Below, piece after piece: positions 2,091 to 20,745 of a stretch of DNA of 64,000 nucleotides (the first letter of the stretch is position 1; each line of letters starts with the position of its first letter). The notes beneath the pieces were generated by a model that made no database searches, had not been told where the DNA came from, and saw only the letters and a program-made list of their open reading frames with translations. Both the position numbers and the translations under genes were made by a program. The stretch lies in the NCBI GenBank assembly GCA_963797055.1, contig CAWCOD010000016.1:27736-91735 (forward strand). The letters run 5' to 3'. This DNA is from an uncultured Holophagae bacterium (GTDB taxonomy: Bacteria > Acidobacteriota > Thermoanaerobaculia > Thermoanaerobaculales > Sulfomarinibacteraceae).

Positions 2091-2548
2091 TTGAATTCTC
2101 AGTTTTGAATTTTGAATTCTGAATTCCCCGCCCGCCATTCGAATTTCGAAATTGCAAGCAATCCGGGTGGGCGCGATGAATCAGTGAATCGAGGAACGCC
2201 CGGGGATCCCTCGAGCGGTTCGTCGACCGTCAGGGCCGCACAACGTCTTATACCGGGCAACTGCCGGGAAGCGCCATGGGGAGAATCGGCGCTTTGAACC
2301 CACGAAACCGCGCCGGACATCGTGAGAAGCCACTCGCTGCGCTCGCTCAGGATGACAGCGGCTGCGATTCGGGCGGGCGGGGGAGAATTTAAAATTGAGA
2401 CCTCCACCGGCCCACCCGTTCTCTCGGGGGGAGGGGGTGGCAATCTGCAATCTGTAATCTGCAATCTGCAATCTGTAATCTGTAATCTGCAATTCGTAAT
2501 AGAGGGTTGGGTGGGAATTCAAAATTGAGAATTCAGAATGAAGAATTC
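2091..2548. repeat. Intergenic mosaic of GB-STR modules plus a half GTCATCCTGAGC-family element
   Basis: AT-rich GAATTC-type array 2091-2127 and C-box 2126-2136. G-boxes at 2165-2172, 2371-2383, 2425-2440 and 2504-2515. Nine heptamers (TGCAATC/TGTAATC) at 2438-2500 and a GAATTC-type array at 2516-2548. CGCTCGCTCAGGATGACA lies at about 2338-2357. Confidence 0.85.
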
Positions 2549-2559
2549 ACCCGGCATCT

Positions 2560-3123
2560 TCAGTCAACAGGAACCGGCCGCATCTCCTGCCACTTCGCCA
2601 CCATGAGCTCGAGGGCGGCCTGGATCTCCTGCTCCGCGTCGTCCGGGTCCTCGGGTACGAGGCCGACCACCGTGCCGCGCCACACCACCATCCCGGTGGC
2701 CATGTCCCAGATGTCGATGATCAAGGTGCCTCGGGGATAGGTCCTGACCTTCTGGCTGTAATCTCCGGCGTCGGCTCCCCAGGCCGGGTCCCACTGCCAT
2801 TCAGGCCCATAGTCATAACCGTAGCTCGCCGCGTCGAGCCGGACCAGTCCCGTGACTCTGGTGTGGTAGGTGACCAACAATTCTGGATTCATGTCGTCCT
2901 GAACAAGACCGCTTTTCACGAGGTGGTACTCGATGGCGTTCTTGACCTGCGAGTGGAGCAGGGGGTGGTCCTCCTCGAGCGAGGTCTCCGGCGTCGGCAC
3001 CCAATCAAAGGTCGAGTAGCTGCCCGGGGCCACCGCGCGGTCGTAGTCGATGTAGACGATCTGAGCACCGACCACCGGCGTCAGCGACACCATAACGAAC
3101 AGCAATGTCAGTACCTTCACCAT
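2560..3123 (-). CDS. DUF4136-like secreted/lipoprotein (paralog 1 of 3)
   Basis: ATG at 3123 preceded by GGGAGG. Signal peptide MVKVLTLLFVMVSLTPVVGAQ. Shares YDRxxxFxxYxTFxW, HxxxKNAIEYxL and GTLxIDIWD motifs with 11637-12209 and 35705-36256. Confidence 0.75.
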   Translation of the reverse strand: MVKVLTLLFVMVSLTPVVGAQIVYIDYDRAVAPGSYSTFDWVPTPETSLEEDHPLLHSQVKNAIEYHLVKSGLVQDDMNPELLVTYHTRVTGLVRLDAASYGYDYGPEWQWDPAWGADAGDYSQKVRTYPRGTLIIDIWDMATGMVVWRGTVVGLVPEDPDDAEQEIQAALELMVAKWQEMRPVPVD

Positions 3124-3192
3124 GCAACACCTCCCTGCGGCCTGCCCTTTCGCGATCTTCCTGCAAGGGTAGCACCCCTGCGGATTGAACCT

Positions 3193-3262
3193 CTGTGGTG
3201 CGGCCGTCTCGGCTGCACTCATGGCCTTTATTTAGAGCACGGATGCAGGCCAGAGGCCCGCT
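3193..3262. repeat. TJ element (double-hairpin repeat), slightly degenerate copy
   Basis: CTGTGGTGCGGCCGTCTCGGCTGCA, about 26 nt of spacer, then TGCAGGCCAGAGGCCCGCT. Confidence 0.7.
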
Positions 3263-3356
3263 CGATAAATCCTGTTCATCCCAAGCGAGCGAAATGGCCG
3301 CGAGTCGAGGGATCCCCCGGGCTCTCCGGAGGGACGCTCAGCCCACTCACGGCTCT

Positions 3357-3415
3357 CCGGATGGGTGGGGGTCTTTGTTCTTTGTTCTTTGTTTTTCGTT
3401 CTTTGGTCTTTGATC
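3357..3415. repeat. GB-STR module (G-box + CTTTGTT/TTCTTYG array)
   Basis: GGATGGGTGGGGG followed by tctttgttctttgttctttgtttttcgttctttggtctttgatcg. Confidence 0.8.
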
Positions 3416-3418
3416 GAG

Positions 3419-4599
3419 CTACGCTCCCAACGCCCTCAACAACACACCGCCGAAACGGCTGACCACCGCGGTGAGCACAGCGGCAATGGCCACGCTGGTC
3501 ACCACCACGATCAGCACTTCGCTGGCCAAAACCGCCCGCACCCTACGGCGCGGCGCACCGATCTTGCGCATGGTCTCGATCTCGCGACGACGCAGCCGCA
3601 CCGAGAGCGCGAAGACCAGCGCCGCGGTGGCGATGGTCGCCAACCCAAGGCCCAAGCTCACAGCGAACATGGCGTTTCGGACCGAGAACATGGTTTCCAC
3701 CAGATCGTCCACAACCACCCGAGGCACCACCATCTGCACTGACTGATCGGGCTCCTGGTAACGGCCGCGCAGCACCACGCCCGACTTGCGATCCACGGGA
3801 ACGGCGAGCACCGCATCCACCGGGAAACCCTCGGGGTCGCCGTGGAAGTGGAAGGAATCGATGTTGTCGGGCGTGATCTCGGTGTAGGACAGCACCGAGG
3901 CATTAGCCACCACGTTGTCCTCGGTGCGGGACAGCACCCCGCTGGCCGCCTCCGGAGCCCTCACGTCCTGGTGGCCATGGGCCAGACCGGCGATCACCCA
4001 CGCGGTCTTGAGGTCGACAAAGACGGCTTCGTCGTCGGGGGTGCCCGTGGGAGCCAGCACCCCAACCACCGGCATCTTGAGCGGGAAGCTGCCGGCCACG
4101 TCGAAGGCGCTGGTGGGCGTCGACAACACGTGATCGCCCGCTCCCACCCGCAGGGCCCGAGCCGCGTTGTGACCCACAATGCACTCGCCGAGCATGGCGA
4201 AACGGCGTCCGGAGGCCACCTCGAGCCCTCGAAAATCGAGGTAGTCGAGGGTGGTGCCGACGATGCGGTGACCCCGGACTTCGTACCTCAAATGGAGCGG
4301 TATCGCTCCGGCGAGACCCGAATCCGCAACCATCTCGGACTCGGCGAACGTCGTTGGATCCAGCGACGGCTCACGGAAGTACAGCGCGCCTAGGGTCAGG
4401 TCCACCGCGCTGCCACGGGCTCCCGAGAAGCAGCGGTGTCTGCGTCGGCGCGGGCCGTGAGTGCCTGCGCCGCCTCCCGCACCACCACCTGCAGGGCGGC
4501 GGGAAGGAAGAGAATCAGACTGATGGAACCGATCAACACCGCGGTCTTGCCCCGGTTGAACCGCAGATACCGCCACGCCAAATACAGCACATCACTCAT
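3419..4599 (-). pseudogene. ABC transporter permease, FtsX/MacB-like, reading frame disrupted near the 5' end
   Basis: The N-terminus (4396-4599, MSDVLYLAWRYLRFNRGKTAVLIGSISLILFLP...) is in one frame. The remainder (3419 to about 4420, GARGSAVDLTLGALYF ... C-terminal FtsX TM bundle) is in another. The intermediate frame reads TPLLLG. Span is 1181 nt (mod 3 = 2). Start overlaps the ATPase stop (ATGA). Confidence 0.7.
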
Positions 4600-5382
4600 G
4601 GAGCGCTCTCGTTGTCACTCGATTCTCGAGGCTCGTTTCTGGTTTGCGAATGCGTGCCGGTTTCAGACCGCTCACGATTCAGAAGCGAGCCTCGAGAATC
4701 GAGAAGAGAGGACGGCTGACCGAAGCCTCCCACGTCAACGACCCGGTCGAAGCGGGGGAGAATCTCGTGGTCGTGGGTGACCACCACCACCGGCGCGCCT
4801 TTTTCGCGGCCGTACCGCAGTAACGCATCGATGACGTGGTCCCTGTTGTCGGGGTCCAGGTTTCCGGTGGGTTCGTCGCCGAGCACCACCGCCGGTTGCG
4901 TAACCAACGCCCGGCACAACCCCACCCGTTGCCGTTCGCCCTGGGACAGATGACCCGGAAAACGGGCCACCTTGTCACCGAGACCCATATCCGTCGCCAG
5001 AGAGATGGCCCGCTCGCGCGTCGCATCGTCCATTTCGAGCACCGGCGTGAGCCGATACGGCAGGAGGATGTTGTCGAGCACGTCGAGGTACTCGAGCAGC
5101 TCGAACTCCTGGAAGACCAGTCCGACCTTCAGGGCCCGCAGATCCTGGCGGTCCTCGGCCCCCAGCGACGCCACGTCGAGACCGGCCACCTCGATGCGAC
5201 CGGTGCGGGGTTCCAGGATCCCGGCCAGCAGGTGGATCAGGGTGGTCTTGCCGCAGCCGCTCGGGCCGGTCAGCGCCAGGCTCTCACCCGGCTCGACCCT
5301 GAGCTCGGGGACCGACCAGTTCGAAACCACCTGATGGGTAGCCGAACTCGAGCCCTTCGACCCGGATCAGATCGGCTTCCAC
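4596..5382 (-). pseudogene. ABC transporter ATP-binding protein with an apparent +1 frameshift near the 5' end
   Basis: Walker A GPSGCGKT, signature LSQGERQR and Walker B VVLGDEP lie in 4596-5330. The expected N-terminal strand VEADLIRVEGLEFGYPSGGFELVG is encoded at 5311-5382 in another frame. The junction is a CCCC run (plus-strand GGGG 5307-5310). Span is 787 nt (mod 3 = 1). Confidence 0.75.
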
Positions 5383-7529
5383 GGCACCACCACCCGATCC
5401 TCGCTCTCGAGCTCGACTCCGGAGATCTTCCAGCGATCACCTTCAGGCCGCAAAGTGAGCATCCCGTTGTATGTGTTCTGCCGATGGTGGACGTGCTGCA
5501 GGTGGCGCACCCTGGCGACGACCATCCACCGGACGTCGTAGGCGAAGTCCTGCCCGGCCACAGCCACATCGAGCGGCTCGCCGATCTCGAGCACTCGGAC
5601 ATCACGCACGGTCACCTCAGCTCCCTCCCGCGTGCCCGCCGTCAGCCTTCGTCGACTGTCGAGATAGAGATCGTCCACGAGCTCTCCGGTGACGTTCCGC
5701 TCCAGAGTGTCGTAGAGCTCGTCCTCATCGGACAGATTGAAGGCGTGGTAGGTCTCGGACAGCACATTGGTCACCACCCGGCGGGCGCTCTCGCCCTCAG
5801 GGGCCCGAGGTTCGAAGAACGGATTGCTGACGACCACCGTGCCGAAGGGTAACAGGAGGAAGGCTGCGCCGAGCAGCAGCCAGTGCGTGACCAGTCGCCT
5901 CTGCTCCACCCCCAGCTGCTTCAGGACGCGCCCCCGCCGTGGCCAGAGAAGCACCGCAGCCACGACCAGCAGCATCGACAGCACCGGGATTCGGAGCAAC
6001 CCGAGCGCCGCCTCGGTGACCACCCGGTTGTCGAACCAAAGGCGGTAGTCGGCCAACCGCCACAGCACCGCCACCCCGCCGACCGCAACGCCCAACACAC
6101 GAATCCACCCGGTCATGGGCGTGATCGGGGAAATCCGTGACACCGACAGGCTCGCGTAGAGGAGGGACGTCGCCGTCAGCACCGCGCCGACCGCAACGCC
6201 AGTGGATTTGGACACATTCTCCACGAGCTCGAGCCCGGTGGACCACCCGTGGGCCACGACCGCGACCGGTACCACGACGAGCACCCACCGGGACGGGAGA
6301 GGCCGGCCAACGGCCAACGCCGCACCGAGCAGAAGCAATGTGCCGATCACGATCACTCCACCCAGGGGGATCGGGTTTCCAAAAAGACCCGGCACCAGTC
6401 CCGACAATGCCAGCATGCCGAATCCGGCCACGACCCATCGCCCGGCCTTGCCGGCCAAAAACAGGGTCGGCCCCAACACCAACGCCAAGAGCGCCAGCTC
6501 CACCGGCGACCTCTGCAGTCCGCCCATCAGCTGGCCAAGAGAAACAAACCGGGCCAGCACCATCCCGGTTGCCAGTCCACCGATCACGTATCCCATCGCC
6601 GTATCGGCCCGCGGCAGCCACCTGCCACCGGCCGCGAGGGTCAACACCGTCCGCAACTCCATCGCCACCAGCGAAATGACGACCAGACCGACGCCCACTC
6701 CCACACCGAAGGACACCAGCGCCACAAGCTGCTCGGCACTGGAGAGGCCGTCCGGCGGCAGAGCTTCGGGCCTTGCCCCTCCGTAGAGCAGGCCCAGGAG
6801 CAACGTGGCGGGCCACAGTGGCTGGAGCCAGCCACGCCAGCGCTCACCTCCCCCGGCCAGGGCCACCGCCGGGACCGCGGCGGAGATCAGAGTGAAGCTG
6901 TCGCGTACCAATGGATGCACCAGCAACCATCCGTTGCCGCCAAGCCACTGTGCCACCCCATGGGCCACGGCGAAGACAGCGGCACCGGTGAAAATATTCC
7001 GCCAACGGGCGCCACCGGCTACGACGACGAGGAGAAGCAACCAAAGCGGGAACTGGCGCAGGGTTCGGCGCATGGCCTCGACCGCTGCGTGTCCTCCCAA
7101 GGACGGCAGCGACGGCGGCAGCGGCACCAGAAAGCCGGGCCGCGATGGGCGCAAAATTCCCGTATATTCGCGCCCATCGAGGGTGGTGAGGGTGAAGGCC
7201 AGGTCAGTCTGAGTTCCCAGAAGACCCTCGATCAACACCGCCTCACCGGCCAACGACGGCGGGTCGCAAACGACCGTCCAGGCGGTGGTGTGGCCTACCG
7301 ACGAAACGCTGATGTCACGCTCGGTGATGTCGCTGCAAGTGGGTGGCAGCAGCGGCTCGGCGCGCAACTTGCGCCCCTCGACGATAGGAAGGGTGAAGAT
7401 CACCTCGTAGGTTCCCGGCTCGGTCTCCTCGAGGGTGAGTCGGGCCGGGAACGCAACGTCCGCGTTCACGGTTCCCGCGGCGGCCCAAAGCACCACCAAC
7501 GCCAGGATGACAGGCTTGAGCCTGGTCAT
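5367..7529 (-). CDS. Large polytopic membrane protein; N-terminal region HupE/UreJ-like (family-2 type), C-terminal soluble domain
   Basis: 720-aa ORF with a signal peptide. ARLTLEETEPGTYEVIFTLP...PPTC resembles the HupE_UreJ_2 N-terminal signature (from memory only). More than 10 predicted TM helices and a hydrophilic ~150-aa C-terminus. Overlaps the PPIase stop by 4 nt. Confidence 0.45.
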   Translation of the reverse strand: MTRLKPVILALVVLWAAAGTVNADVAFPARLTLEETEPGTYEVIFTLPIVEGRKLRAEPLLPPTCSDITERDISVSSVGHTTAWTVVCDPPSLAGEAVLIEGLLGTQTDLAFTLTTLDGREYTGILRPSRPGFLVPLPPSLPSLGGHAAVEAMRRTLRQFPLWLLLLVVVAGGARWRNIFTGAAVFAVAHGVAQWLGGNGWLLVHPLVRDSFTLISAAVPAVALAGGGERWRGWLQPLWPATLLLGLLYGGARPEALPPDGLSSAEQLVALVSFGVGVGVGLVVISLVAMELRTVLTLAAGGRWLPRADTAMGYVIGGLATGMVLARFVSLGQLMGGLQRSPVELALLALVLGPTLFLAGKAGRWVVAGFGMLALSGLVPGLFGNPIPLGGVIVIGTLLLLGAALAVGRPLPSRWVLVVVPVAVVAHGWSTGLELVENVSKSTGVAVGAVLTATSLLYASLSVSRISPITPMTGWIRVLGVAVGGVAVLWRLADYRLWFDNRVVTEAALGLLRIPVLSMLLVVAAVLLWPRRGRVLKQLGVEQRRLVTHWLLLGAAFLLLPFGTVVVSNPFFEPRAPEGESARRVVTNVLSETYHAFNLSDEDELYDTLERNVTGELVDDLYLDSRRRLTAGTREGAEVTVRDVRVLEIGEPLDVAVAGQDFAYDVRWMVVARVRHLQHVHHRQNTYNGMLTLRPEGDRWKISGVELESEDRVVVPWKPI

Positions 7530-8398
7530 TCGGCGGCCGCCTCCAGCACCTCTCTCACCGGCCGATCGAGCATGATCTGGTAGGTCTGTGCGATTTCCTG
7601 ATAAAGCTGTTCCTTGGACGCAGATCGGGCCTCATATTCCATGTCCCCGATGACCCGGGCGCCAACCTCCCGCGGGTCGGGGATCCGGGAGTCCTGCCGT
7701 TTGATCACCTTGACCAGGTGCAGACCAAAGCCGGAGACCACGGGCCCTTCCCACTCGCCAAGCTCCTGGGCCACCACGGAGACCGCGAAGTCCTCACCAA
7801 AGGTCGAGCGGATTTCCGGCTCGGTCTGTCCCGAGACCACCATCGGCAACATGATGGAATCACCCCACGAGCCGAGATCCTCCAAATCCGGATCCTCGAG
7901 ACGGAGCCGCGTCAACATCTCCACGGCATCCTGCGATGCGGATGTTCCCCGCTTATCGGGGCTGACATAGACCTGAGCAAAACTGACCACTGCGGGCAGC
8001 CGATACCGCTCCTGCCGCAGCGCGAAGTAGGCCTCCACCTCCTCATCGGTGGGTGGTTCTCTCATGGCCTGGGACGACGCCAGAAACTCCATCTTCTGCT
8101 GCATGGCCCGTCGCACCACCAGATCGTCGCGATCGTAGCCGCGGGCCAGGGCCTCCCGGTAGAGCACCTCCTGGCGGATGAACTTCTCCAGCTCGCCGCG
8201 GAGCTCCACCGCCGTCGGCTCACGCTGCCATGTTCGATAGAACCCGGCCTGCAGCTGCATCAGATCGGCACCGGTCACCACCACGCGCTGCGCCTCGTTG
8301 CCGGTGGGCGGACCCTTGGCGATGAGGATCGCCGCCGCCACGATGAAGCCGAGGATCACGATGTGGGTCGCCGGATGGCGCAAAATGGGTGAATTCAC
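7526..8398 (-). CDS. Peptidyl-prolyl cis-trans isomerase, parvulin/PpiC-type, N-terminally membrane-anchored
   Basis: GTG at 8398 lies 9 nt after GGAGGG. TM segment HIVILGFIVAAAILIA. SurA-N-like helical region, then GEWEGPVVSGFGLHLVKV typical of the parvulin fold. Confidence 0.7.
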   Translation of the reverse strand: MNSPILRHPATHIVILGFIVAAAILIAKGPPTGNEAQRVVVTGADLMQLQAGFYRTWQREPTAVELRGELEKFIRQEVLYREALARGYDRDDLVVRRAMQQKMEFLASSQAMREPPTDEEVEAYFALRQERYRLPAVVSFAQVYVSPDKRGTSASQDAVEMLTRLRLEDPDLEDLGSWGDSIMLPMVVSGQTEPEIRSTFGEDFAVSVVAQELGEWEGPVVSGFGLHLVKVIKRQDSRIPDPREVGARVIGDMEYEARSASKEQLYQEIAQTYQIMLDRPVREVLEAAAE

Positions 8399-8687
8399 GG
8401 TCCACAACCCTCCTGAAAAAAAGATGATAGCCGGGCTTCGCCGTTGCGACACCCTAATGAGACTGCCCATGCTCCTTGGGTGATCGGTTACAACCCACAA
8501 ACACACGACCTACAACCCAGGTCCGGTTGAATGAGAAATGCGAAATGTGCGGCCGCGGTCGGATGCTGCCTGCTGCCTGATGCCTGGCAGGCCAGGTGGG
8601 TAGGCAACGCGGAAATTCGACTTCTGAACCCCCCTTCATTGGGTACAGACGCGGAAGGTGGCGTCCACACTCTCCACTCGTCCCATC

Positions 8688-8935
8688 GCGGTGCCAGGGC
8701 CATCGCGGTGCCAGGGCCGACACTATTGACTCCCAGCTTCGTCGCGGTGCCATCGTGGTGCCAGGGCCGACACTTCTGACAAGCAGTATTGAGCGACAAC
8801 ACAATTATCCCTGGAGAAGGCGAAGAAAGTGTCGGCCCTGGCACCGGGGGTCATATCTCCCCTTAGAAGGTGTCAGAGGTGTCGGTCCTGGCACCGATGG
8901 GAACGATGGAGTTTTAGGGCTCGGACCTCAGGACC
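8688..8935. repeat. PH element, right copy (inverted relative to 121-345)
   Basis: GTGCCAGGGCCGACACT at 8708-8724 and 8758-8775. Reverse copies at 8827-8844 and 8877-8894. The reverse complement aligns with 121-345 at roughly 85-90% by eye, with one extra hairpin unit. Confidence 0.85.
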
Positions 8936-8976
8936 ACCAAGCGGGTGGCGGATCTAGAATCTCGTATCTCGACGGA

Positions 8977-9840
8977 TCAGAACCGCGCCCGCACGAACAG
9001 GCTGAAATCGTTGATGTCGTAGCTGATGGCAGCGTTCAGCAACGTCCCGTTCTCCTCGGTTTCGATTCCGTCCCAATCGACATCGATGGTCGACAGATTA
9101 AAGGCACCACCAACCGAGAAATGATCCCCGATGAGGTACTCGATGCCCAGACGGCCGACCCACTGACCGCCCGAGATGTCCTCGATACTGACGTACAACC
9201 AGCCGAGCCCGGCTTGGAACCGCCAGTGTTCGGAAAACATCCGCCGGTACTCGAAGTAGAGGTAGGGCAGCGGACCGGTGCCCTTCACGTCGCTGGTGCC
9301 CTCGCCCTGCTCTTCGCCGCCCTCCAAACTCCAGTCCAGCGTTGCCGAAAGTTCCAAGACGCGCAGACCGAGCCCGAAGCCGGCCGCCCACCGCTCCTTG
9401 ACCCATGGGAAGTAGGTGTAATCGATGTAGAACTGGGTCACGTCGAAACCGAGATTGACCTCGGCGTCGATGGGGATCACCTCATCGCCCCACTTGATCT
9501 CCTCAAGGCTCTGCGAGGTGGAGTCACGGCTGATGTCCTGCCAGCGCACGCCCAACCTGTGCTTGCGGGCGATCTGCCACTCGAAGGCCAACGACGGAAC
9601 GGTCTTCGACGCATCGAGGTCCAGGTCGTCCTCGAAATTGAGGGTCGTTCCCCTGCCGAGCACCTCGGAGTCGAGTCGGATCTCGGTCGACATACCAACC
9701 CAGCTGGCCTCAACCCTGAAGTTGAACTTGTCGAGCAGCGGTTCATAATCGCGCTGCGCTTCGGCGGGCGTTGCACAGACGATCGTCACAATGATGAGCA
9801 ACGCCAAACCCAAGAATCGAGATGGCACACTGTTTGTCAT
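8977..9840 (-). CDS. Outer-membrane beta-barrel protein (family unassigned)
   Basis: ATG at 9840 after GGAAGGGG. Signal peptide ...IVCATPAEAQ, alternating beta pattern, C-terminal ...SLFVRARF. Confidence 0.6.
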   Translation of the reverse strand: MTNSVPSRFLGLALLIIVTIVCATPAEAQRDYEPLLDKFNFRVEASWVGMSTEIRLDSEVLGRGTTLNFEDDLDLDASKTVPSLAFEWQIARKHRLGVRWQDISRDSTSQSLEEIKWGDEVIPIDAEVNLGFDVTQFYIDYTYFPWVKERWAAGFGLGLRVLELSATLDWSLEGGEEQGEGTSDVKGTGPLPYLYFEYRRMFSEHWRFQAGLGWLYVSIEDISGGQWVGRLGIEYLIGDHFSVGGAFNLSTIDVDWDGIETEENGTLLNAAISYDINDFSLFVRARF

Positions 9841-10192
9841 CGTTGACCCCTTCCAGTCACTGTGATCTCGTGCACGATCATACCGCGTTCGTCGGCCCAT
9901 GTGGGACTCTCGTCGGTTGCGGAAGGAAACGGCTTTGAAGATGATGGGAGAGCGGGCGCCTTCGCCGATCTCGAAGGCCCCACGCCGCCGGAAAGGGACT
10001 GGCGGTGCGGGTCCCCCCGAAGCTCAGCCTGTACTCTCCACCGAGTTTCGTCGCGAGGGAGGTAAAGCACAAGTATCCGTTGGGTTTATCGTAAATTGGG
10101 CGACACAGGCCATGGACAATGGGTCCATTGATTCCACGCTCCCAATTTCACCACGCCACTCTAGCCCAACCGGTCCACCGATCTTCGACTGA

Positions 10193-11014
10193 TCAGAACG
10201 GGAAGTTGAAACTGAGCCGATATCCGCTTTGGCGATCGCCGAACCGGTAGCCGAGGGCAATCCACGGCATCTTGATTTTCCACAGCTTGACGATTGGGTC
10301 GGTGGCGAAACTCAACCCGACCTCGTAGTTCCATTCGATATTTATGGGCCCCTCGGTGATCAACTCGAACTCCAGGTTCGAGTAGTGACGGGCGACGGCG
10401 TACATGCCGCCGTGAGCCTCCTTCGATCCCACTGAAAAGCCAAGCGGCAGCTGCGCGTCGGCGCCGATCTCCACTGTTGAGTACCAGTTCTTGACCGCCA
10501 CCGACGTGGTGTTGTTGCGGTACCTAAGGGCGCCGCCGACCATGATGTTGAAGGGTCCGGGCTGGTACTCGGCCCTGGCGCGAATCCCCGCCGCGTACAG
10601 TAACTCAACCCCGCCTGTGGCAGTGTCGTCGGCGACACCCAATTCGACGAACGGTTTGAGGACCCACCGGTCTCCCACCGGTACCAGAAACTCCGCGCCC
10701 GGGATGAATGCAATGGACTGAAAGCTGTCGAAGAAATCGCCCACATTGGTGGCGGTCTCCAACTGAAAGGTGCCGAGCGAGATCGGAAAATACAGACGGA
10801 GACCCCACGGCTTGTCCTTGAGCTTGCGCGGCCGATACGAGATCGAAATGCGGTAGATTTGGAAGGACTTGGCCTCGGCGTCTTCTATGGTGCCGGATTG
10901 CCTCGGCAGCATCGCAAGTGGGATGTCTTCGTCGAAAGCCCTTGCCGGTGCCACAGCTCCCAGCACGAGTGCCAGGACACCAAATATCAGGACTGCTCTT
11001 CGAACCGAATCCAT
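10193..11014 (-). CDS. Outer-membrane beta-barrel protein (family unassigned)
   Basis: ATG at 11014. Signal peptide MDSVRRAVLIFGVLALVLGAVAPARA. C-terminal ...YRLSFNFPF. Confidence 0.6.
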   Translation of the reverse strand: MDSVRRAVLIFGVLALVLGAVAPARAFDEDIPLAMLPRQSGTIEDAEAKSFQIYRISISYRPRKLKDKPWGLRLYFPISLGTFQLETATNVGDFFDSFQSIAFIPGAEFLVPVGDRWVLKPFVELGVADDTATGGVELLYAAGIRARAEYQPGPFNIMVGGALRYRNNTTSVAVKNWYSTVEIGADAQLPLGFSVGSKEAHGGMYAVARHYSNLEFELITEGPINIEWNYEVGLSFATDPIVKLWKIKMPWIALGYRFGDRQSGYRLSFNFPF

Positions 11015-11091
11015 GGCCACCAGACTACAGGACCTGTTCTTGTTCTCGCTCGAGTGGTTTCGAGCGGTTGGTACCGAACACCTGACCGTAA

Positions 11092-11145
11092 GTGCCAGGG
11101 CCGACACTGGTGACAATCTTCGCGCCAAAGTGTCGGCCCTGGCAC
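11092..11145. repeat. PH element, minimal single hairpin
   Basis: GTGCCAGGGCCGACACT (11092-11108), about 19-20 nt loop, AAGTGTCGGCCCTGGCAC (11128-11145). Perfect 17-bp stem. Confidence 0.85.
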
Positions 11146-11150
11146 CCTGA

Positions 11151-11302
11151 GAACGTTAAACGTTAAACGTTGAACGTTCCCTCCCCCCAACCGGGGCGAG
11201 GTGGGCGCGTATGGCGGGCGTACCGTCCAACGGAGTCGATAGTCCAAAGTCGATAGTCAAAGTGAAAGTCGATAGTTGAAAGTTGAAAGTTCCCACCCTA
11301 CC
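11151..11302. repeat. GB-STR modules (AACGTTR array; GTCGATAGT/GAAAGTT array)
   Basis: gaacgttaaacgttaaacgttgaacgtt followed by C-box CCCTCCCCCC. gtcgatagtccaaagtcgatagtcaaagtgaaagtcgatagttgaaagttgaaagtt followed by C-box CCCACCCTACC. Confidence 0.8.
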
Positions 11303-11580
11303 TCCTGGAGTGCAAGGGCGCGATGATTGGGCGTGCCGGGCAACCTGCCGGCGGCAGCGGTAGTGGCCGTGGCCGGGTGCGGCGGCCGTTTCCGATCCTG
11401 CGAGTGGGATCAGCGGCCATACGGCCACCCGCTGGTGACGGCTGGTCACCGCGGCCACCGGCCGCGAGTAACCGCGGGGAGCGCGATGGGGAGAGGGGAG
11501 GGGAGAGCGTTAACGAGGCTCGGGATCGGGCTCGAGGCTCGAGGCGGCGATCGCGGTCTCCGGCGATCTCGATGCTCGTC

Positions 11581-11636
11581 ATCTTGCATCTTGGATCTTG
11601 GATCTTGGATCTCGTATCCGGGCGTGTGGGCGGGCG
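11581..11636. repeat. GB-STR module (CTTGSAT array + G-box) abutting a stop codon
   Basis: atcttgcatcttggatcttggatcttggatctcgtatc followed by CGGGCGTGTGGGCGGGCG. Ends at the TAG of 11637-12209. Confidence 0.8.
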
Positions 11637-12209
11637 CTACTTTCCCTTGGCCTGCTGAGCCCTCTGCTTCTGGAACTGTTTGACCATCTTCTTGAGCGCC
11701 TTGTCGATCTGTTTGTCCGCCTTCTGCGGATCCTCGGGTACCGTCGCGCTGGTCGATCCACGCCAGACGATCTCGTTGGTCTCGGCGTCCCAAATATCGA
11801 TCACCAGGGTGCCGCGTTCATAGGTCGTGGCAGTGGTCACCGAATTTCCCATGGTGCCGCCCCAATAGGGATCCCAGCCCCAGCCGGGACCGTAGCTGTA
11901 TCCGTAGGTGGTGGTGCTGAACCTGACATCCTCGTAGGTGCCGACGTGATAGGTCACGTAGAGATCCGGATCCGTCGGATCCTCGACACCACCTCCCTTG
12001 GCCAGGTAGTACTCGATGGCGTTCTTGATGCGCGAGTGCATGAACGGCGACGCACCCTCGATTGAGGTCTCCGGGGTCGGTCCCCAGGCAAAGGTCTTGT
12101 ACGAGTCGAAGTCGGCGTTGCGGTCATAGTCCACGTGGACCGACTGTGCCGCCGCCGGCAGGGCGGTCAGGGCCAGGATGATTGCCATTCCAAAAAATCT
12201 CTTCACCAT
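11637..12209 (-). CDS. DUF4136-like secreted/lipoprotein (paralog 2 of 3)
   Basis: 190 aa with GGAGG RBS. Signal peptide MVKRFFGMAIILALTALPAAAQ. Same motif set as paralogs 1 and 3. Confidence 0.75.
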   Translation of the reverse strand: MVKRFFGMAIILALTALPAAAQSVHVDYDRNADFDSYKTFAWGPTPETSIEGASPFMHSRIKNAIEYYLAKGGGVEDPTDPDLYVTYHVGTYEDVRFSTTTYGYSYGPGWGWDPYWGGTMGNSVTTATTYERGTLVIDIWDAETNEIVWRGSTSATVPEDPQKADKQIDKALKKMVKQFQKQRAQQAKGK

Positions 12210-12226
12210 GCCTCCAAGATGTCCAA

Positions 12227-13711
12227 TCAGTCCGGGTCGGTTCGACGAATTCTCTCGATCAGTTTGCTGGTGGAGTGTTCCGGCAGCAGCCGCACGAGCT
12301 CCACCGAGCCCCCGTAAGACTCCACGAGCTCTCGACCCACCACCTCATCCAGCTGGTAGTCTTCGCCCTTCACCAGGATGTCGGGACGGATCAGTTCGAG
12401 GGTCTCGAGTGGCGTGTCTTCGCCGAAAATCGTCACGGCATCGACGCAGTCCAGCGCGGCCAGCAGTGCCGCCCGCTCTCCCTGCGGCATCAGCGGCCGG
12501 TCGTCGCCCTTGAGCCGCCGCACCGAGTCGTCGCTGTTGATGGCCAGCACCAGCACATCGCCGAGCTCGGCCGCCTCGCGCAGCAGCGAGAGGTGGCCGA
12601 TGTGCAGCAGATCGAAACAGCCGTTGGTGAACACGACCCGTTTGCCCTGGAGACGCCACGACTCCACCTGGGCCGCCAGTCCGGTCCGGCTCATGACCTT
12701 GCCGGCCGGCCGCTCGCCCAGCGCGGCCAGAAGATCCGACGGTGGCACGGCCGCGGTGCCCACCTCGCTCACCGCGATCCCTGCCGCAACGTTGGCGAGC
12801 CGGCTGGCATCCTCCAGCCCGGCTTTCGCACCGAGACCGAGCGCCATGACCGCCACCGCGGTATCGCCGGCGCCGGTGACGTCGAAGACGGCACGGCGCT
12901 GAGCCCGAATCACGGTGAAATCGCCTTCCCGGGGCACCACCAGCATGCCCCGCTCGCCGAGGGTCACCACCAGCGCTTCGAGACTGGTGCCGGCCAGAAC
13001 GCCACGCGCGGCGTCGGCGACGGCGTCGTCGTCGGCCGAACTCAGGTCACGCCCGGTCGCCATTTCCAGCTCACGGAGATTCGGCGTGACGACGGTGGCG
13101 GCGCCGTAGGCCTCCAGATCCGGTCGTTTGGGATCCACCAAAACCGGCACATCCACCCGCCGCGCGGCCGAGATCAACAACGCCGTGGAATGATCGGTGA
13201 GAAATCCCTTGGCGTAGTCGCTGAGGATCAGCACATCGGGCGGATCTCCCGCCTCCAACTGCGCCACCAGTCCGGCGACAACGTCGTCCGGACACGGACG
13301 TCCGTCCTCCCAATCAAGACGGAGCAGCTGTTGGCGCTGGCCGAGAACTCGGACCTTGTGAGTCGTCGGCACGTGCTCCATACGCCCCACGGCACGGGTA
13401 TCGATTTCGTTGTCGGCGCAGGCTGAGAGCACCCTGTCGCCCGCGCCATCGGTTCCGATCACGCCGCATAGACTGGCCCTGGCCCCGAGAGCTGCGATCT
13501 GACGCGCCACGTTTGTCGCACCGCCGAGGCGCCACATGCGTTCACGGACATGCACCACCGGCACCGGCGCCTCGGGCGACACTCGCCCCACATTACCCAC
13601 GATGTACTCGTCCAGCATGATGTCCCCGGCCACCCAGACGTGGAGCTCGGGGAAACGGGAAACGATTTCCGCCAGCCGGTCCTCGGCGTGATTCTCCCGG
13701 CTCATGTCCAT
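12227..13711 (-). CDS. hldE: Bifunctional D-beta-D-heptose 7-phosphate kinase / D-beta-D-heptose 1-phosphate adenylyltransferase
   Basis: 494 aa. N-terminal ribokinase-like domain (GGATNVA, TGAGDT) and C-terminal cytidylyltransferase domain (VFTNGCFDLLHIGH). Confidence 0.85.
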   Translation of the reverse strand: MDMSRENHAEDRLAEIVSRFPELHVWVAGDIMLDEYIVGNVGRVSPEAPVPVVHVRERMWRLGGATNVARQIAALGARASLCGVIGTDGAGDRVLSACADNEIDTRAVGRMEHVPTTHKVRVLGQRQQLLRLDWEDGRPCPDDVVAGLVAQLEAGDPPDVLILSDYAKGFLTDHSTALLISAARRVDVPVLVDPKRPDLEAYGAATVVTPNLRELEMATGRDLSSADDDAVADAARGVLAGTSLEALVVTLGERGMLVVPREGDFTVIRAQRRAVFDVTGAGDTAVAVMALGLGAKAGLEDASRLANVAAGIAVSEVGTAAVPPSDLLAALGERPAGKVMSRTGLAAQVESWRLQGKRVVFTNGCFDLLHIGHLSLLREAAELGDVLVLAINSDDSVRRLKGDDRPLMPQGERAALLAALDCVDAVTIFGEDTPLETLELIRPDILVKGEDYQLDEVVGRELVESYGGSVELVRLLPEHSTSKLIERIRRTDPD

Positions 13712-14308
13712 CCGTCCCCTCCGGCGGCCCGCTCGACGGCCTCCGCCAGCACGTGCAGGACCACCTCGTGGACCTCCTGGATACGAGCCACCGTGCGAGA
13801 GGGCGCGGCAACCACGAGATCACAGTATTCGGCCAGTCGGCCGCCGTCACCGCCGGTGAGCCCGACCACCGTGCAGCCCAGGTCCTTCGCCTGACGGGCG
13901 GCCTCGATGACGTTTGGCGAGTTGCCACTGGTACTGATGGCCATCAGCATGTCGCCAGGTCGAGCCAGCGCCTCCACCTGACGGGCGAAGACGCGGTCGA
14001 AGCCGTAGTCGTTGGCGATGGCGGTCAGGGCCGAGCTGTCGGTGGTCAGCGCCACGGCCGCCACTGCGGGTCGGTCGGATCTGGTAGCGACACACCAGCT
14101 CGGTGGCCAGATGCTGGGCATCGGCGGCGCTGCCGCCGTTGCCGCAGACCAGCAGTTTGCCCCCACTGCCGAGACAGGCGATGGCCGCAGCCACCAGCTC
14201 TTCCAGGATGACCGGCAGCGTCTGGGCGGCTTCCGCCATGACCCGGCCATGCTCCTCAAAATTCCCGAGGACCAGCGCCCGGATTCCATTGTCTTCGGAC
14301 GACGTCAT
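13702..14308 (-). pseudogene. gmhA: D-sedoheptulose 7-phosphate isomerase (SIS domain) with an apparent +1 frameshift
   Basis: The N-terminal half (...[24 protein letters not shown]) is in one frame. The C-terminal half ([17 protein letters not shown]...[10 protein letters not shown]...IQEVH) is in another. Junction at plus-strand 14083-14084. Span is 607 nt (mod 3 = 1). Confidence 0.75.
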
Positions 14309-14318
14309 CACTCCTCCA

Positions 14319-14859
14319 TCAGGATTGCCTCGAGCGACGCTGCTCGAGGTCATCGTACACCGCGACAGCGTCAGGGCCGATGATCTCCTCGGTCTCGCGG
14401 CCCTTACCGGTGCGCACCAGGATGGCCTTCACACCGGCGGCCTCGGCGGCCTCGATGTCCCTCGCCGCATCCCCCACAACTACGGTTTCCTCCCGAGGGA
14501 TCCCAGACCACGCCACGGCCTGCTCGATCAAACCCGGCAGGGGTTTTCGGCAATCACAGAGATCCTCGGGGGCGTGCGGACAGACAAAGACGGCGTCGAT
14601 GGGTGCGCCGGCGTCTTCGGCATCCCGCAGCATCAGATCGGTCACGGCATCCACCGCCTCCATGGGGAAGACACCCCGGCCCACGCCCGACTGGTTGGTC
14701 GCCACCGACAGCACCATCGCCGGCAGCGGCCAGCCGCCGCAGGGCCTCCAGCGCACCCGGCTCCCACACCCAGTCCTCGGGTCGGGCAACCCAGCTGCCG
14801 TCGGGCGGCTCCCGGTTGAGCACGCCGTCGCGATCGAGAATGACGTGACGTACGACCAC
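14319..14859 (-). pseudogene. gmhB: D,D-heptose 1,7-bisphosphate phosphatase (HAD family) with an apparent +1 frameshift
   Basis: N-terminus MVVRHVILDRDGVLN (HAD motif I) runs to ...LRRLAAAG. It then continues in another frame as MVLSVATNQSGVGRG...CDCRKP...VGD. Junction about 14713-14725. Span is 541 nt (mod 3 = 1). Confidence 0.75.
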
Positions 14860-14862
14860 GGC

Positions 14863-15859
14863 CTACCGGTAGGGATCGGGCTGCATCAGGTAATCCTGAA
14901 CGTAGCGCCGAACCCCATCCTCAATACTGGCGAACGGTCGATCGTAGCCGGCCTGCCGCAGTTTGCTCATCTCGGCCTGGGTAAAGTACTGGTAGCGGTC
15001 ACGGATGGCGTCCGGCATGGGAATGATTTCGATCTCGGGCTCCGCCCCCACAGCCTCACACAGGGAGCGAGCGAGGTCCGAGAAACTCCGTGCCTCACCC
15101 GTGCCGAGGTTGAAAAGCCCGCTGACCTCCGGGTGGTCGAGCAGCCACAGCACGACGTCGACGCAGTCCTCGACAAACACGAAATCCCGCAGCTGGCCGC
15201 CGTCGGGGTAGTCCGGATTGTGGGACGCGAACAGCGTGATGGGCTCACCGGCCGCCGCCAGCAGGTACTTCTGGGCGATCACACTCTTCATCGACCCCTT
15301 GTGGTACTCGTTGGGACCGTAGACGTTGAAGAACTTCAACCCGACCCACTGCGGCGGCGCCTCCTCCCCCTGTTCCACAGCCGCCACCACCCATCGATCA
15401 AAGAGGTGTTTGCTCCAGCCGTACGGGTTGAGAGGTCGCAGCGCGGCGAGCGCATGCGGCGGACTGATCGTCGTCGAATCCCTGGCTGCCGTCGCCGTAG
15501 GTCGCGGCCGAGGAGGCGTAGATCAACGGAATGTCCTGCCCGGCGCAGAATCGCCACAGGTCGCGGGAGAGCCTGAAGTTGACGTCGACGATGAGATCGG
15601 CGTCGGTCTCGGTGGTCGACGAGATCGCGCCCATGTGGACCACCGCAGCCAGAGAGGCTCCGTTGGCTTCGAGCCACGGCAGCAGAGATTCCGGCGCCAC
15701 CACGTCATCCAGCTGACGTTTGGCGATGTTGCGCCACTTGTCTCCGGTGCGCAGCCGGTCACAAACGACCACGGTATCGCCCCGCTCACCGAGAGCGGCC
15801 ACGATGTTGGAGCCGATGAAACCGGCGCCTCCCGTCACAAGGATTTTCTTTGCCGTCAC
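14863..15859 (-). pseudogene. hldD: ADP-L-glycero-D-manno-heptose 6-epimerase with an apparent +1 frameshift
   Basis: The N-terminus ILVTGGAGFIGSN...ASSAATYG lies in 15398-15859. Continuation LAALRPLNPYGWSKHLFDRW...FFNVYGPNE lies in the 14863-15390 frame. Junction 15451-15463. Span is 997 nt (mod 3 = 1). Confidence 0.75.
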
Positions 15860-15999
15860 CGTTTGGATTCCCCTTTCGTCGGGTCACCGGCATTCTAGTC
15901 GATCGAGCCGGGTTGCGGGCAGTAGGCAGCCCCCCGCCGGCCCGGAGGAGCAGGTCTGGAAAGCGTAGAAAGGGCAGAAGGTGAAAAGAGGACCCACGA

Positions 16000-16203: not shown

Positions 16204-16280
16204 TTGTGGAGCAGGCCTCTGGCCTGCATTTGTCCATTCTATCGAGGCAAGAAATGCAGGCGGGACGGCTGCTCCACAAT
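16204..16280. repeat. TJ element (reverse orientation)
   Basis: TTGTGGAGCAGGCCTCTGGCCTGCA, 26 nt of spacer, TGCAGGCGGGACGGCTGCTCCACAAT. Outer arms are perfectly complementary. Confidence 0.85.
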
Positions 16281-16291
16281 GGCGACCAGGT

Positions 16292-16375
16292 CCCCCCGCC
16301 CGCCCAATTCGAAATTCCTAACCCCGACCATCCGACACGGCCCGCTATTCACCACTCGCTATTCACTATTCACTT
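16292..16375. repeat. GB-STR modules (C-box + AATTCGAAATT; CTATTCA array)
   Basis: CCCCCCGCCCGCCC followed by aattcgaaattcc. Then gctattcaccactcgctattcactattcactt. Confidence 0.7.
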
Positions 16376-16445
16376 CAAATCGAGTCGGCGGGGCGCCCCG
16401 CGTGCTAACCTTTCCGCCGCCGAGGAGACTGTGGACGTCAGAACC

Positions 16446-17672
16446 ATGCGCTTCGTGGACCGCTGGATCGGCGCACCCATGTGCGCCGTTCTGACCGTGG
16501 TCCGCCGGCTCGACGACCTGGTACTGCGTCGCGACCCCGATCGGCCGCCCGAGAAAATCGCCGTCATGAAGCTCGCCGAGCAGGGCGCCACCGTGCTGGC
16601 CTACTCGGCACTGGTCCGCGCACGGGAGATGGTGGGCGCCGAGAACCTCTACTTCGTGGTGTTCTCAGAGAACCGCTTCATCCTCGACCTGCTCGACGTG
16701 GTGCCGGACGCAAATGTGATCTCGATCCGCACCGACGGACTCTTCCGGGTCGCGAGCGACACTCTGAAGGCCATCTTCCGCATGCGTCGCGAGGGCATCA
16801 ACGCAACCGTGGATTTCGAATTCTTTGCCCGTTCATCCGCCATCCTTTCCTACCTGTCGGGAGCCAGGGCGCGGTCGGGCTTCCACGGCTATTTCGGTGA
16901 GGCCTCCTATCGTGGCGACCTCATGACCCACCGACTGTCGTTCAACCCGTTTCTCCACGCCGCCGAGATCTTTCAGATTTTGGTCGAGGCGTTCCGCCAT
17001 CCGGCGAAGGGTTTCCCGGCCTTCGACCTGACCCCACCACCCGACCTCCCACTGCCGCGGCTCGAGCCCGAGGAGGCCGAGAACCGCGAGGTGGGACAGA
17101 TGCTCTCAGACGCCCTCGGCACCGCCACGCTGCCTCCCATCGTGCTGCTCAACGCCAACTGCGGTGACCTCCTGCCGTTGCGCCGCTGGCACGACGATGG
17201 ATATGTGGAGCTTGCCCGGCGAATCCTCAATCACAATCCGGAGATCTGCATCGTTCTCACCGGCTCGCCGTCGGAGGCGCCCGAGGCGGAAGCCTTGGCC
17301 GCCCGAATCGACTCTGCGCGCTGCATCAGCTTTGCCGGCAGGACCACACTGCGTCAGCTGATGGTGCTCTACGGCCTCTCCGAGCTGATGGTGACCAACG
17401 ACAGCGGCCCCGCCCACTACGCCACGTTGACCTCTATCGACGTCATCACCCTCTTCGGTCCCGAGACACCGGCGGTTTTCGGCGCCCGCACCCCGCAGAG
17501 CCACATCCTGTGGTCCAACCTGGTGTGCAGTCCGTGCGTCAACGCCTTCAACGACCGGCAGTCCGCCTGCCGGCGCAACCGTTGCATGGAGTTGATCACG
17601 GTTGATCAAGTCTTCGATACCGTCTGCGGCGTCCTCGAAAAACGCCGGCAGAGTCGAATTTTGAATTCTTAA
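16446..17672 (+). CDS. Glycosyltransferase family 9 (heptosyltransferase-like)
   Basis: ATG at 16446; upstream in-frame sequence is repeat DNA. C-terminal half ...LTGSPSE...FAGRTTLRQLMVLYGLSELMVTNDSGPAHYA is typical of GT9. The last codons (RILNS*) and the TAA stop lie inside an AT-rich STR array. Confidence 0.7.
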   Translation: MRFVDRWIGAPMCAVLTVVRRLDDLVLRRDPDRPPEKIAVMKLAEQGATVLAYSALVRAREMVGAENLYFVVFSENRFILDLLDVVPDANVISIRTDGLFRVASDTLKAIFRMRREGINATVDFEFFARSSAILSYLSGARARSGFHGYFGEASYRGDLMTHRLSFNPFLHAAEIFQILVEAFRHPAKGFPAFDLTPPPDLPLPRLEPEEAENREVGQMLSDALGTATLPPIVLLNANCGDLLPLRRWHDDGYVELARRILNHNPEICIVLTGSPSEAPEAEALAARIDSARCISFAGRTTLRQLMVLYGLSELMVTNDSGPAHYATLTSIDVITLFGPETPAVFGARTPQSHILWSNLVCSPCVNAFNDRQSACRRNRCMELITVDQVFDTVCGVLEKRRQSRILNS

Positions 17673-17717: not shown

Positions 17718-17834
17718 TTTGTAGCGCAGCCGTCTCGGCTGCATCTCCGGTGCTAAATGAACGTACGATTGCAGGCCAGAGGCCTGCGCTACAACCGTCG
17801 AATGTGTAGCGCAGCCGGGACGGCCGCACCACAA
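17718..17834. repeat. TJ element plus an extra half-arm
   Basis: TTTGTAGCGCAGCCGTCTCGGCTGCA, spacer, TTGCAGGCCAGAGGCCTGCGCTACAA (17769-17794). Then TGTGTAGCGCAGCCGGGACGGCCGCACCACAA. Confidence 0.85.
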
Positions 17835-20186: not shown

Positions 20187-20247
20187 AGCTCACGGATCTT
20201 ACGGGTCGAGGCCGTCGAGAGTCAAACCGTCAGCCAGCCACACGGCC

Positions 20248-20346: not shown

Positions 20347-20384
20347 ACCGAGATGGTGATGTGACCGACAAATGTCAACCCCTG

Positions 20385-20722: not shown

Positions 20723-20745
20723 CCCGGCTGTGCGAAAATGTCCGA

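Follow-up and report, generated by a model that had tools for sequence, protein, structure and literature searches.

Eight extra bases in ADP-heptose and ABC transporter genes are probably consensus errors of one assembly

Five neighbouring genes of the window (the whole 64 000-nucleotide stretch of DNA that was analysed) are interrupted by a total of eight extra single bases, every one of them a +1 change. Three of these genes belong to the ADP-heptose pathway and two encode an ABC transporter (Table 1). Comparison with related sequences makes it very probable that the eight bases are local consensus errors of one assembly, and the organism's permease, ABC ATPase, gmhA, gmhB and hldD are almost certainly intact. 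As anticipated for an artefact, the extra bases occur in one assembly only, the error is of one type and removal of the bases restores full-length genes that are under purifying selection. The affected genes are simply those that lie beneath two short stretches.

Location of the extra bases

Pfam recognized both halves of each broken gene in different frames, confirming the first-pass annotation, which had described five disrupted genes with family motifs kept on either side. In tblastn searches with homologous ORFs, gmhA, gmhB and hldD each came back as adjoining segments in successive frames, and a codon-usage Viterbi scan placed frame switches at 4429/30, 14063/4, 14725/6 and 15452/3 with no stop nearby. 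When relatives whose genes are intact were aligned at the DNA level, a gap of 1 nt opened in their sequence at every site. The six insertions counted in the first-pass annotation are all real +1 frame changes, but the count rises to eight with two further bases, missed before, at the 3′ end of gmhB (extra bases 6 and 7). The true C-terminus of GmhB, ending in EAILMEE and the stop codon, is read in a third frame, past extra base 7. The earlier statement that each gene spans 1 or 2 nt over a multiple of three thus holds for the permease, the ATPase, gmhA and hldD; gmhB carries three.

Table 1. Genes and extra bases in the window. Extra bases are bracketed in the sequence; L numbers denote relatives.
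Feature	Position	Strand	Length or sequence	Remarks
FtsX/MacB-type ABC permease	3419..4599	-	1181 nt = 392 codons + stop + 2	Pfam FtsX, MacB_PCD
Extra base 1, permease	4441..4443	-	GACGC[A]GACA or GCA[G]ACA	1-nt gap in L161, L171, L162; no homopolymer
Extra base 2, permease	4421..4425	-	CT[C]GGGAGCC or GGG[A]GCC	1-nt gap in L161, L171, L162
ABC ATPase	4596..5382	-	787 nt = 261 codons + stop + 1	Pfam ABC_tran
Extra base 3, ABC ATPase	5312..5314	-	CTGGT[C]GGTC or GTC[G]GTC	Probable position; absent in L161, L171, L162, L172
hldE (bifunctional heptose kinase + adenylyltransferase)	12227..13711	-	494 aa	Intact; just beyond second cluster
gmhA (sedoheptulose-7-phosphate isomerase)	13702..14308	-	607 nt = 201 codons + stop + 1	Pfam SIS_2 split over two frames
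Extra base 4, gmhA	14078..14079	-	CAGA[T]CCGAC or AT[C]CGAC	1-nt gap in L166, L167, L170
gmhB (heptose 1,7-bisphosphate phosphatase)	14308..14859	-	552 nt = 182 codons + stop + 3	Pfam HAD families
Extra base 5, gmhB	14718	-	GCCGGC[G]ATGGTG	Flanks identical in relatives; G duplicates no neighbour
Extra base 6, gmhB 3′ end	14341	-	GAGC[A]GCG	
Extra base 7, gmhB 3′ end	14333	-	TCGC[T]CGAGG	
hldD (ADP-glyceromanno-heptose 6-epimerase)	14863..15859	-	997 nt = 331 codons + stop + 1	Pfam Epimerase split over two ORFs
Extra base 8, hldD	15454..15456	-	GCCGCA[T]GCGCTC	L170: same flanks, no T

In the permease, translation of the short frame between extra bases 1 and 2 gives the conserved TPLLLG, as had been noticed previously; at the second site the relatives read ADATPLLLGARGS. 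The GTG start of the ABC ATPase at 5382 overlaps the 3′ end of an upstream gene of 720 aa, and the sequence of its N-terminal strand and A-loop (IRVEGLEFGY) sits in a different frame. The insertion in this gene had been assigned to a CCCC run at 5307–5310. Dropping a C from the run gives three mismatches to L171, compared with one for removal at 5312–5314, and yields Gly where the relatives have Val or Ile. The base placed at 5312–5314 is the sole gap across 2135 nt of alignment with L172 (94% identical). From these alignments the extra base probably sits at 5312–5314, a few bases upstream of the run. The claim of one insertion in a clear homopolymer therefore probably does not hold, and a homopolymer is required at none of the eight sites. 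Insertions that duplicate neither neighbour are certain at GGC[G]ATG, GCA[T]GCG and AGC[A]GCG.

The eight bases do lie within the 4.4–15.5 kb region reported initially; they form two tight clusters, at 4421–5314 (0.9 kb) and 14078–15456 (1.4 kb), rather than occupying one 11-kb stretch. The coding DNA that separates the clusters (7 kb) showed no frame-disrupting indel when aligned to relatives. When eight uniformly distributed events were simulated, they fell within two intervals of ≤ 1.4 kb in 1 of 2 000 000 runs (∼ 5 × 10⁻⁷). The suggestion that similar indels might be found uniformly elsewhere was not borne out: alignment of ∼ 35 kb of other DNA, the codon-model scan and Pfam coverage gave no further coding frameshift, in agreement with the original view that hldE and the rest of the window are intact. 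hldE aligns without a gap to L166 and L167. The second cluster covers the start of gmhA, the whole of gmhB and two thirds of hldD, with hldE just outside. Three of the four ADP-heptose genes are thus broken because they are physically adjacent under one 1.4-kb stretch. The permease was hit twice and gmhB three times, with no other damage to either, and two pairs of insertions are spaced only 8 nt and 16–22 nt apart. The direction is uniform (8/8 insertions, p = 0.008).

Several other switches called by the codon model proved not to be frameshifts. At 38216 an intact aldehyde dehydrogenase gene ends and an EamA-like gene follows; at 42410 a low-complexity C-terminal tail is followed by an FHA gene; and four ordinary operon junctions, each with a stop 1–12 nt away, account for the switches at 23.7–25.2 kb. 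Rfam and tRNA scans found no RNA genes in the window.

Repaired genes and their relatives

Close relatives were obtained from protein searches with the repaired products and compared by gene-level alignments at 82–94% DNA identity. They comprise L161/L166 (on one 241-kb contig), L167, L170, L171, L162 and L172; the k141_ names of L167, L170 and L172 are typical of contigs built by MEGAHIT from short reads. The first-pass annotation had proposed such a comparison with orthologues, and the outcome was clear: the genes of the relatives are intact, and none of the relatives examined has any of the eight extra bases. Removing the eight bases from the window gives ORFs of 392, 261, 201, 182 and 331 aa (permease, ATPase, GmhA, GmhB and HldD) with no internal stops, the same lengths as in the relatives, where HldD ranges from 328 to 332 aa. 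The repaired permease is 93% identical to a homologue (P0001) that likewise has 392 aa.

Repaired GmhA, GmhB and HldD, together with HldE, match their family models end to end, which places them in the ADP-heptose pathway. HldD scored 401.6 bits against TIGR02197 (cut-off 274.6). GmhB matched NF006506 over positions 3–179 of 182, with a score of 176.2 against a cut-off of 178, and GmhA was full-length to the NCBIfam gmhA models, with a TIGR00441 score (195 versus 209) slightly below the equivalog cut-off. HldE matches the NCBIfam rfaE domains I and II, the latter above its cut-off. In species-level genome and metagenome scans the best matches to HldE were only 57–60% identical and therefore unusable for base-level comparison. 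The sources of the more distant homologues assign them to Acidobacteriota, Holophagae or Thermoanaerobaculales.

An exact look-up among ∼ 15 billion proteins placed the truncated products (153-aa HldD, 244-aa ATPase and 67-aa permease fragments) on just one contig, of 103 909 nt. The 90% clusters to which these fragments belong include intact versions from other assemblies.

Selection and the case for real insertions

If the insertions were real, one reading would be a very recent inactivation in which gmhA, gmhB, hldD and the ABC exporter were knocked out, possibly because selection favoured a truncated LPS core (phage escape would be an example), with later hits following once the pathway was dead. 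The extra bases are present in the deposited sequence, they fall in two functional units with several hits per pathway, a classic pattern of gene decay, and recombination and variation among relatives are strong at this locus, which is common for surface-polysaccharide loci. Nevertheless, we regard such an inactivation as unlikely. Pairwise dN/dS was 0.078–0.184 for the repaired genes compared with 0.065–0.177 for intact neighbours. The 32 substitutions private to the window in gmhA, gmhB and hldD fall mostly at codon position 3 (23, versus 9 at positions 1 + 2), and their (1 + 2)/3 ratio of 0.39 lies below the 0.53–0.70 of relatives with intact genes. Relaxed selection is thus absent on the window's own branch, and neither dN/dS, private substitutions nor the repaired frames gave any trace of neutral decay in the five genes. 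Five private indels set against 32 selected substitutions do not fit a pattern of neutral decay. For a gene to be hit a second or third time, neutral time is needed, of which the substitutions show none; nonsense codons and deletions are also missing from the repaired frames.

Further observations speak against genuine loss. hldE and the adjoining heptosyltransferase-family gene are intact. The fragments are confined to one contig, no independent genome or assembly with the same lesion was found and five relatives are intact, while the assembly of a relative shows the same type of lesion in unrelated genes. The spectrum consists solely of insertions and does not look like slippage, which sets it apart from the bacterial mutation spectra known from mutation-accumulation studies. 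Ordinary bacterial pseudogenes are also recognizable genes with a disrupted frame, but their lesions are a mixture of deletions, insertions and stops with a bias towards slippage, and their dN/dS is raised; the window shows none of this. Measured as recent pseudogenes, the five genes show the frame disruption; relaxed selection, an independent sighting and a natural indel spectrum are all missing. Heptose-less 'deep rough' LPS mutants of E. coli and Salmonella have lesions in gmhA, gmhB, hldD/rfaD or hldE/rfaE. The same pathway genes are hit in the window, which, if the lesions were real, would leave the cell without ADP-L-glycero-D-manno-heptose. Deep rough mutants are, however, single defined lesions with a phenotype, whereas the window, from an uncultured bacterium, has five lesions in three genes and no sign of decay.

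A local process that makes only insertions could account for the one-sided spectrum and still have recently inactivated the heptose genes and the exporter. Ku/LigD end joining in mycobacteria adds single non-templated nucleotides, and the repair of repeated double-strand breaks by such a system would be an example. The eight sites share no cleavage motif and so lend this reading no positive support; we judge it very unlikely. No shared motif or palindrome indicative of an endonuclease, methylation or recoding was seen across the sites.

Programmed +1 ribosomal frameshifting, or slippage during transcription, might instead allow the genes to be expressed in spite of the shifts. The shifts agree in sign, and the direction is that of programmed frameshifting of the prfB type. 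Here the resemblance ends: the window has no conserved site, stimulatory context or conservation among orthologues, which are single-frame in all relatives. The eight sites have no slippery motif, in-frame stop, rare codon or A/T run in common, and three separate events within a 182-codon gene would be unprecedented. Recoding is, in our estimate, hardly credible. We attach equally little weight to phase variation, the reversible slipped-strand switching of LPS genes at simple-sequence contingency tracts. LPS-core genes are typical targets of such switching in some pathogens, but a homopolymer or short tandem repeat tract is found at none of the eight sites, the sole nearby run (CCCC) is probably not an insertion site and a tandem-repeat search of the window found repeats in intergenic DNA only.

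Consensus error as the probable source

Consensus error is the reading we favour. The first-pass annotation had listed, without choosing, a low-quality stretch, strain heterogeneity collapsed in assembly and genuine inactivation of heptose synthesis. Our results favour an artefact of either of the first two kinds and disfavour the third because selection is not relaxed, only insertions occur, multiply hit genes have not decayed, the bases are absent from relatives and a related contig has defects of its own. Gene-fragmenting indels are a recognized fault of long-read genome and metagenome assemblies (PMC9262707; bioRxiv 10.1101/2021.08.23.457338). A poorly supported consensus in the regions ∼ 4.42–5.31 kb and 14.08–15.46 kb would have led to the inserted bases. 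Low local coverage by error-prone reads is one candidate cause; another is a polishing step applied to a mixture of diverged strains that occurred together, and this would fit the strongly mosaic identity of the window to its nearest relative (64–100%). Intermediate divergence alone fails to predict the sites, because hldE and the 720-aa gene are similarly diverged and carry no insertion. Apart from their absence from blocks of 96–100% identity, the insertions showed no clear relation to recombination breakpoints or identity class, and no excess of substitution errors was found beside them.

The likeness to indels of long-read or mixed-strain assemblies (PMC9262707; PMC12007338; bioRxiv 10.1101/2021.08.23.457338) is that private indels split conserved genes, that reference-guided removal restores full-length proteins and that a related long contig is similarly affected elsewhere. 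The best-known long-read error is the homopolymer indel (PMC9262707). Textbook assembly indels lie in homopolymers, are often deletions and are scattered along low-coverage contigs, whereas the window has insertions only, none clearly in a homopolymer, confined to one stretch of 0.9 kb and another of 1.4 kb. Several observations count against an artefact: the insertions are non-homopolymeric, unlike that best-known error, substitution errors are not in excess beside them, similarly diverged genes escaped insertion, and the affected genes form functionally coherent sets, as pathway decay would also give.

Taken at face value, the sequence predicts no ADP-heptose for the LPS core and loss of the ABC exporter, which would misdirect conclusions about metabolism and the cell envelope. 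Annotation should list the five genes as intact or mark them 'frameshifted; possible sequencing error', and frameshift-aware gene calling is needed for both the assembly of the window and the related 241-kb contig. The finding is an ordinary one and holds no new biology unless read data prove the insertions real.

The same defect is present in the long contig of the nearest relative (contig_1903 of ERZ25039603). Its PMT, aldehyde dehydrogenase and MFS genes carry three +1 insertions that are the contig's own; all three genes are intact in the window. Pooling the window with contig_1903 gives 11 insertions among 11 events (p = 0.001).

Frame breaks and extra bases

Pfam places the halves of five genes in differing frames in the window (63% G+C): those for an FtsX/MacB-type ABC permease and an ABC ATPase, and gmhA, gmhB and hldD of ADP-heptose synthesis. 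When translated ORFs of 80 genomes with hldE were compared with the window by tblastn, gmhA, gmhB and hldD each gave segment pairs contiguous in both query and window and in successive frames (-1 to -2, -2 to -3). A seven-state Viterbi scan, with a codon-usage model trained on the long ORFs of the window, placed same-strand frame changes without a nearby stop at 4429/30, 14063/4, 14725/6 and 15452/3. The ATPase break is close to the start of the gene, where a GTG start at 5382 opens the frame encoding the N-terminal strand and A-loop (MEADLIRVEGLEFGY...); the Walker-A part is read in another.

Genome scans at species level gave HldE only 57-60% identical. Much nearer relatives were obtained by searching with repaired proteins (from the window sequence with the extra bases deleted), with a permease of exactly 392 aa (93% identity) and HldD of 328-332 aa (86-92%). 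The relatives' contigs have the gene order of the window and unbroken genes, encoding an ATPase of 261, a permease of 392, HldD of 328-332, GmhB of 182, GmhA of 201 and HldE of 494 aa. Three of the homologous loci (L161, L166 and L168) lie on a single 241-kb contig of the nearest relative, ERZ25039603:contig_1903; the names of L167, L170 and L172 contain k141_, as is usual for MEGAHIT assemblies of short reads, and L171 and L162 are JGI metagenome contigs. Some relatives have a small gene between the ATPase and permease (PDDEXK_3 or 23S_rRNA_IVP four-helix-bundle family), and a further 23S_rRNA_IVP gene of L161 is absent from the window (gap near 11290); such genes seem to come and go among relatives.

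DNA alignments with the relatives (82-94% identity) show a single extra base in the window at each of eight positions. They bear out the frameshifts of the first-pass annotation and raise its count from six by adding 14341 and 14333, which shift the last gmhB codons twice, so that the real C-terminus, EAILMEE*, lies in a third frame with its stop at 14310-14308. Between the two permease insertions the frame encodes TPLLLG, as had been noted, and as in the relatives (ADATPLLLGARGS). The ATPase insertion had been assigned to a CCCC run, which is probably uninvolved: placement as GTC[G]GTC or GT[C]GGT leaves one mismatch rather than three and reads ELVVPEL, as in L171 and L172. Deletion of the eight bases gives ORFs of 392, 261, 201, 182 and 331 codons whose sole stop is terminal; repaired GmhA, GmhB and HldD match NCBIfam models end to end, HldD scoring above the equivalog cut-off.

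Coordinates of extra bases, relatives' small genes, identity blocks and intergenic repeats
Feature	Position	Gene or content	Split Pfam domain	Strand
Extra base	window 4421-5	permease	FtsX + MacB_PCD	minus
Extra base	window 4441-3	permease	FtsX + MacB_PCD	minus
Extra base	window 5312-4	ATPase	ABC_tran	minus
Extra base	window 14078/9	gmhA	SIS_2	minus
Extra base	window 14333	gmhB	HAD	minus
Extra base	window 14341	gmhB	HAD	minus
Extra base	window 14718	gmhB	HAD	minus
Extra base	window 15454-6	hldD	NAD-epimerase	minus
contig_1903 insertion	L166 ~745 (window 35231)	PMT-family gene, truncated		
contig_1903 insertion	L168 ~1271 (window 37126)	aldehyde dehydrogenase, 294 aa vs 485 aa		
contig_1903 insertion	L168 ~12269 (window 49583)	MFS transporter, C-terminus truncated		
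Small gene	L162 9573-10004	PDDEXK_3 / 23S_rRNA_IVP		
Small gene	L171 5278-5814	PDDEXK_3 / 23S_rRNA_IVP		
Small gene	L161 2701-3075	PDDEXK_3 / 23S_rRNA_IVP		
Identity to contig_1903	window 5850-6750	64%		
Identity to contig_1903	window 9300-11100, 13650-13800	96-100%		
7-nt array	window 2440-2500			
7-nt array	window 3372-3412			
7-nt array	window 11581-11612			
7-nt array	window 20248-20346			
7-nt array	window 20426-20509			
7-nt array	window 33907-33954			
7-nt array	window 41075-41130			
7-nt array	window 49494-49556			
7-nt array	window 59383-59452			
7-nt array	window 62388-62421			
~80-nt element	window 3190-3270			
~80-nt element	window 16204-16298			
~80-nt element	window 17719-17813			
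~80-nt element	window 40812-40871			
~80-nt element	window 46550-46644			
~80-nt element	window 49336-49430			
~80-nt element	window 52673-52767			
~80-nt element	window 55654-55748			
~80-nt element	window 56799-56893			
~80-nt element	window 62206-62300			

Distribution along the window

The concentration within 4.4-15.5 kb originally claimed holds and is tighter than stated, the DNA alignments resolving two clusters, one with three bases at 4421-5314 and one with five at 14078-15456. Eight uniformly placed events fell within two intervals of ≤1.4 kb in one of 2,000,000 trials. Neither the 7 kb of coding sequence separating the clusters nor hldE has a frame-disrupting gap when aligned with the relatives. 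Where 16-20, 30.8-36 and 35.8-58.7 kb were aligned to relatives, coding indels were all multiples of three, and 1-nt indels were all either intergenic or extra in the relative. At 20.6-32 kb, a block that the nearest relative's contig lacks at this position, the Pfam domains are complete, and no other switch flagged by the codon model in the window survived inspection. One at 42410 was false, caused by the tail of a 758-aa protein (42109-44385, minus strand); this C-terminal tail is long, of low complexity and G/R/Y-rich (PSTRPSTRPSTP...), and an FHA-domain gene comes after it. A further extra base relative to L161 (CCC[T]TGCAGG) is intergenic, at 3166, ∼250 nt downstream of the permease in a block of 94-99% identity; either the first cluster has a ninth insertion here or the indel is a natural intergenic one.

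The second cluster takes in all of gmhB, with the first third of gmhA and the final two thirds of hldD on either side. Three of the four heptose genes are indeed hit, but their functional coherence adds nothing beyond adjacency, since the cluster physically covers gmhA-gmhB-hldD. hldE begins 370 nt past it. The heptosyltransferase-family gene at 16206-17672, which is transcribed divergently, is unbroken.

Origin of the extra bases

Pairwise dN/dS is the same in repaired genes (0.078-0.184) and intact neighbours (0.065-0.177). In a four-way alignment gmhA, gmhB and hldD have 32 substitutions private to the window, nine of them in the first two codon positions and 23 in the third. The ratio of 0.39, compared with 0.53-0.70 in relatives with intact genes, shows that these genes are more constrained in the window; the neutral expectation is ∼2:1, in the opposite direction. 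With indels and substitutions in the proportions usual for bacteria, five indels arising neutrally should be accompanied by several tens of unconstrained substitutions. By dN/dS and private-substitution codon positions, no relaxed selection was seen in the repaired genes. Genuine recent inactivation is improbable; it would need an insertion-specific local mutator so recent that the substitution signal is nil.

The insertion spectrum is unnatural. All eight indels are +1 (p = 0.008), none of the eight sites requires a homopolymer, the neighbouring base was certainly not copied in several (GGC[G]ATG, GCA[T]GCG, AGC[A]GCG), and two pairs are spaced 8 and roughly 16-22 nt. gmhB, with 182 codons, took three hits and the permease two, with no other damage. 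Clustered breaks mended by LigD-type non-templated +1 addition are very unlikely to be the source; no cleavage motif common to the eight sites was found to back this reading. We give almost no credence to recoding, since the shifts are not conserved in orthologs and the sites share no motif, or to phase variation, for which the sites have no repeat tracts.

Among ∼15 billion proteins the truncated products are confined to one contig, and other assemblies contribute intact versions (261 aa and 494 aa) to their 90% clusters. In contig_1903, three genes that are unbroken in the window each carry a +1 insertion; pooled, 11 of 11 are insertions (p = 0.001). Long-read (meta)genome assemblies are known to suffer from indel errors that break genes up, as described in a preprint (bioRxiv 10.1101/2021.08.23.457338) and in PMC9262707. 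Together with the selection data, the odd spectrum, the multiply hit genes, the sighting on one contig and the same defect in a relative, this makes local consensus error very probably the source of the eight extra bases. The clustered bases are most likely a technical feature, and the biological reading is probably wrong. Polishing over a strain mixture, or a local drop in coverage, could have confined the errors.

Mosaic identity and intergenic repeats

Over 2266-15905 and 35768-58652, identity to contig_1903 varies between 64% and 100% within a few hundred bases, and a 662-aa protein (47264-49252) is 99% identical to its counterpart there. In a three-way alignment with L166 and L167, sites at which the window agrees with one or the other of the two form long runs (runs test z = -8). 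The pattern is suggestive of heavy recombination or of diverged strains that co-occur, and chimeric assemblies could also produce it. A 10.7-kb block, 20081-30841, has no counterpart at the same position in contig_1903, where the flanking genes are ∼300 nt apart. It holds a sigma-54 activator, DUF2092, an ABM monooxygenase, a sulfatase and an Omp85-like gene, and its sigma-54 activator side is present in L167.

In many intergenic regions of the window, units of 7 nt or sometimes 8 nt, such as GCAATCT, GATGCTG (×14) and CTGCTCC (×12), form tandem arrays reminiscent of the cyanobacterial heptamer STRR repeats. Between the window and its relatives the arrays change by entire units, their lengths differing by 7 nt at 3393 and 16359, 21 nt at 2482 and 41 nt at 49494. 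At least 10 intergenic elements of ∼80 nt form one family on both strands and resemble REP or MITE elements; each has the termini TTGTGGAGC...GCTCCACAA and a pair of hairpins rich in G+C, GCAGCCGTCCCGGCTGC and GCAGGCCAGAGGCCTGC. An intergenic 152-nt inverted repeat pair (158-309 and 8699-8850, 91% complementary) includes 28-nt and 17-nt tandem units seen at 281-338 and 8683-8718, and copies are also present in the relative's contig.
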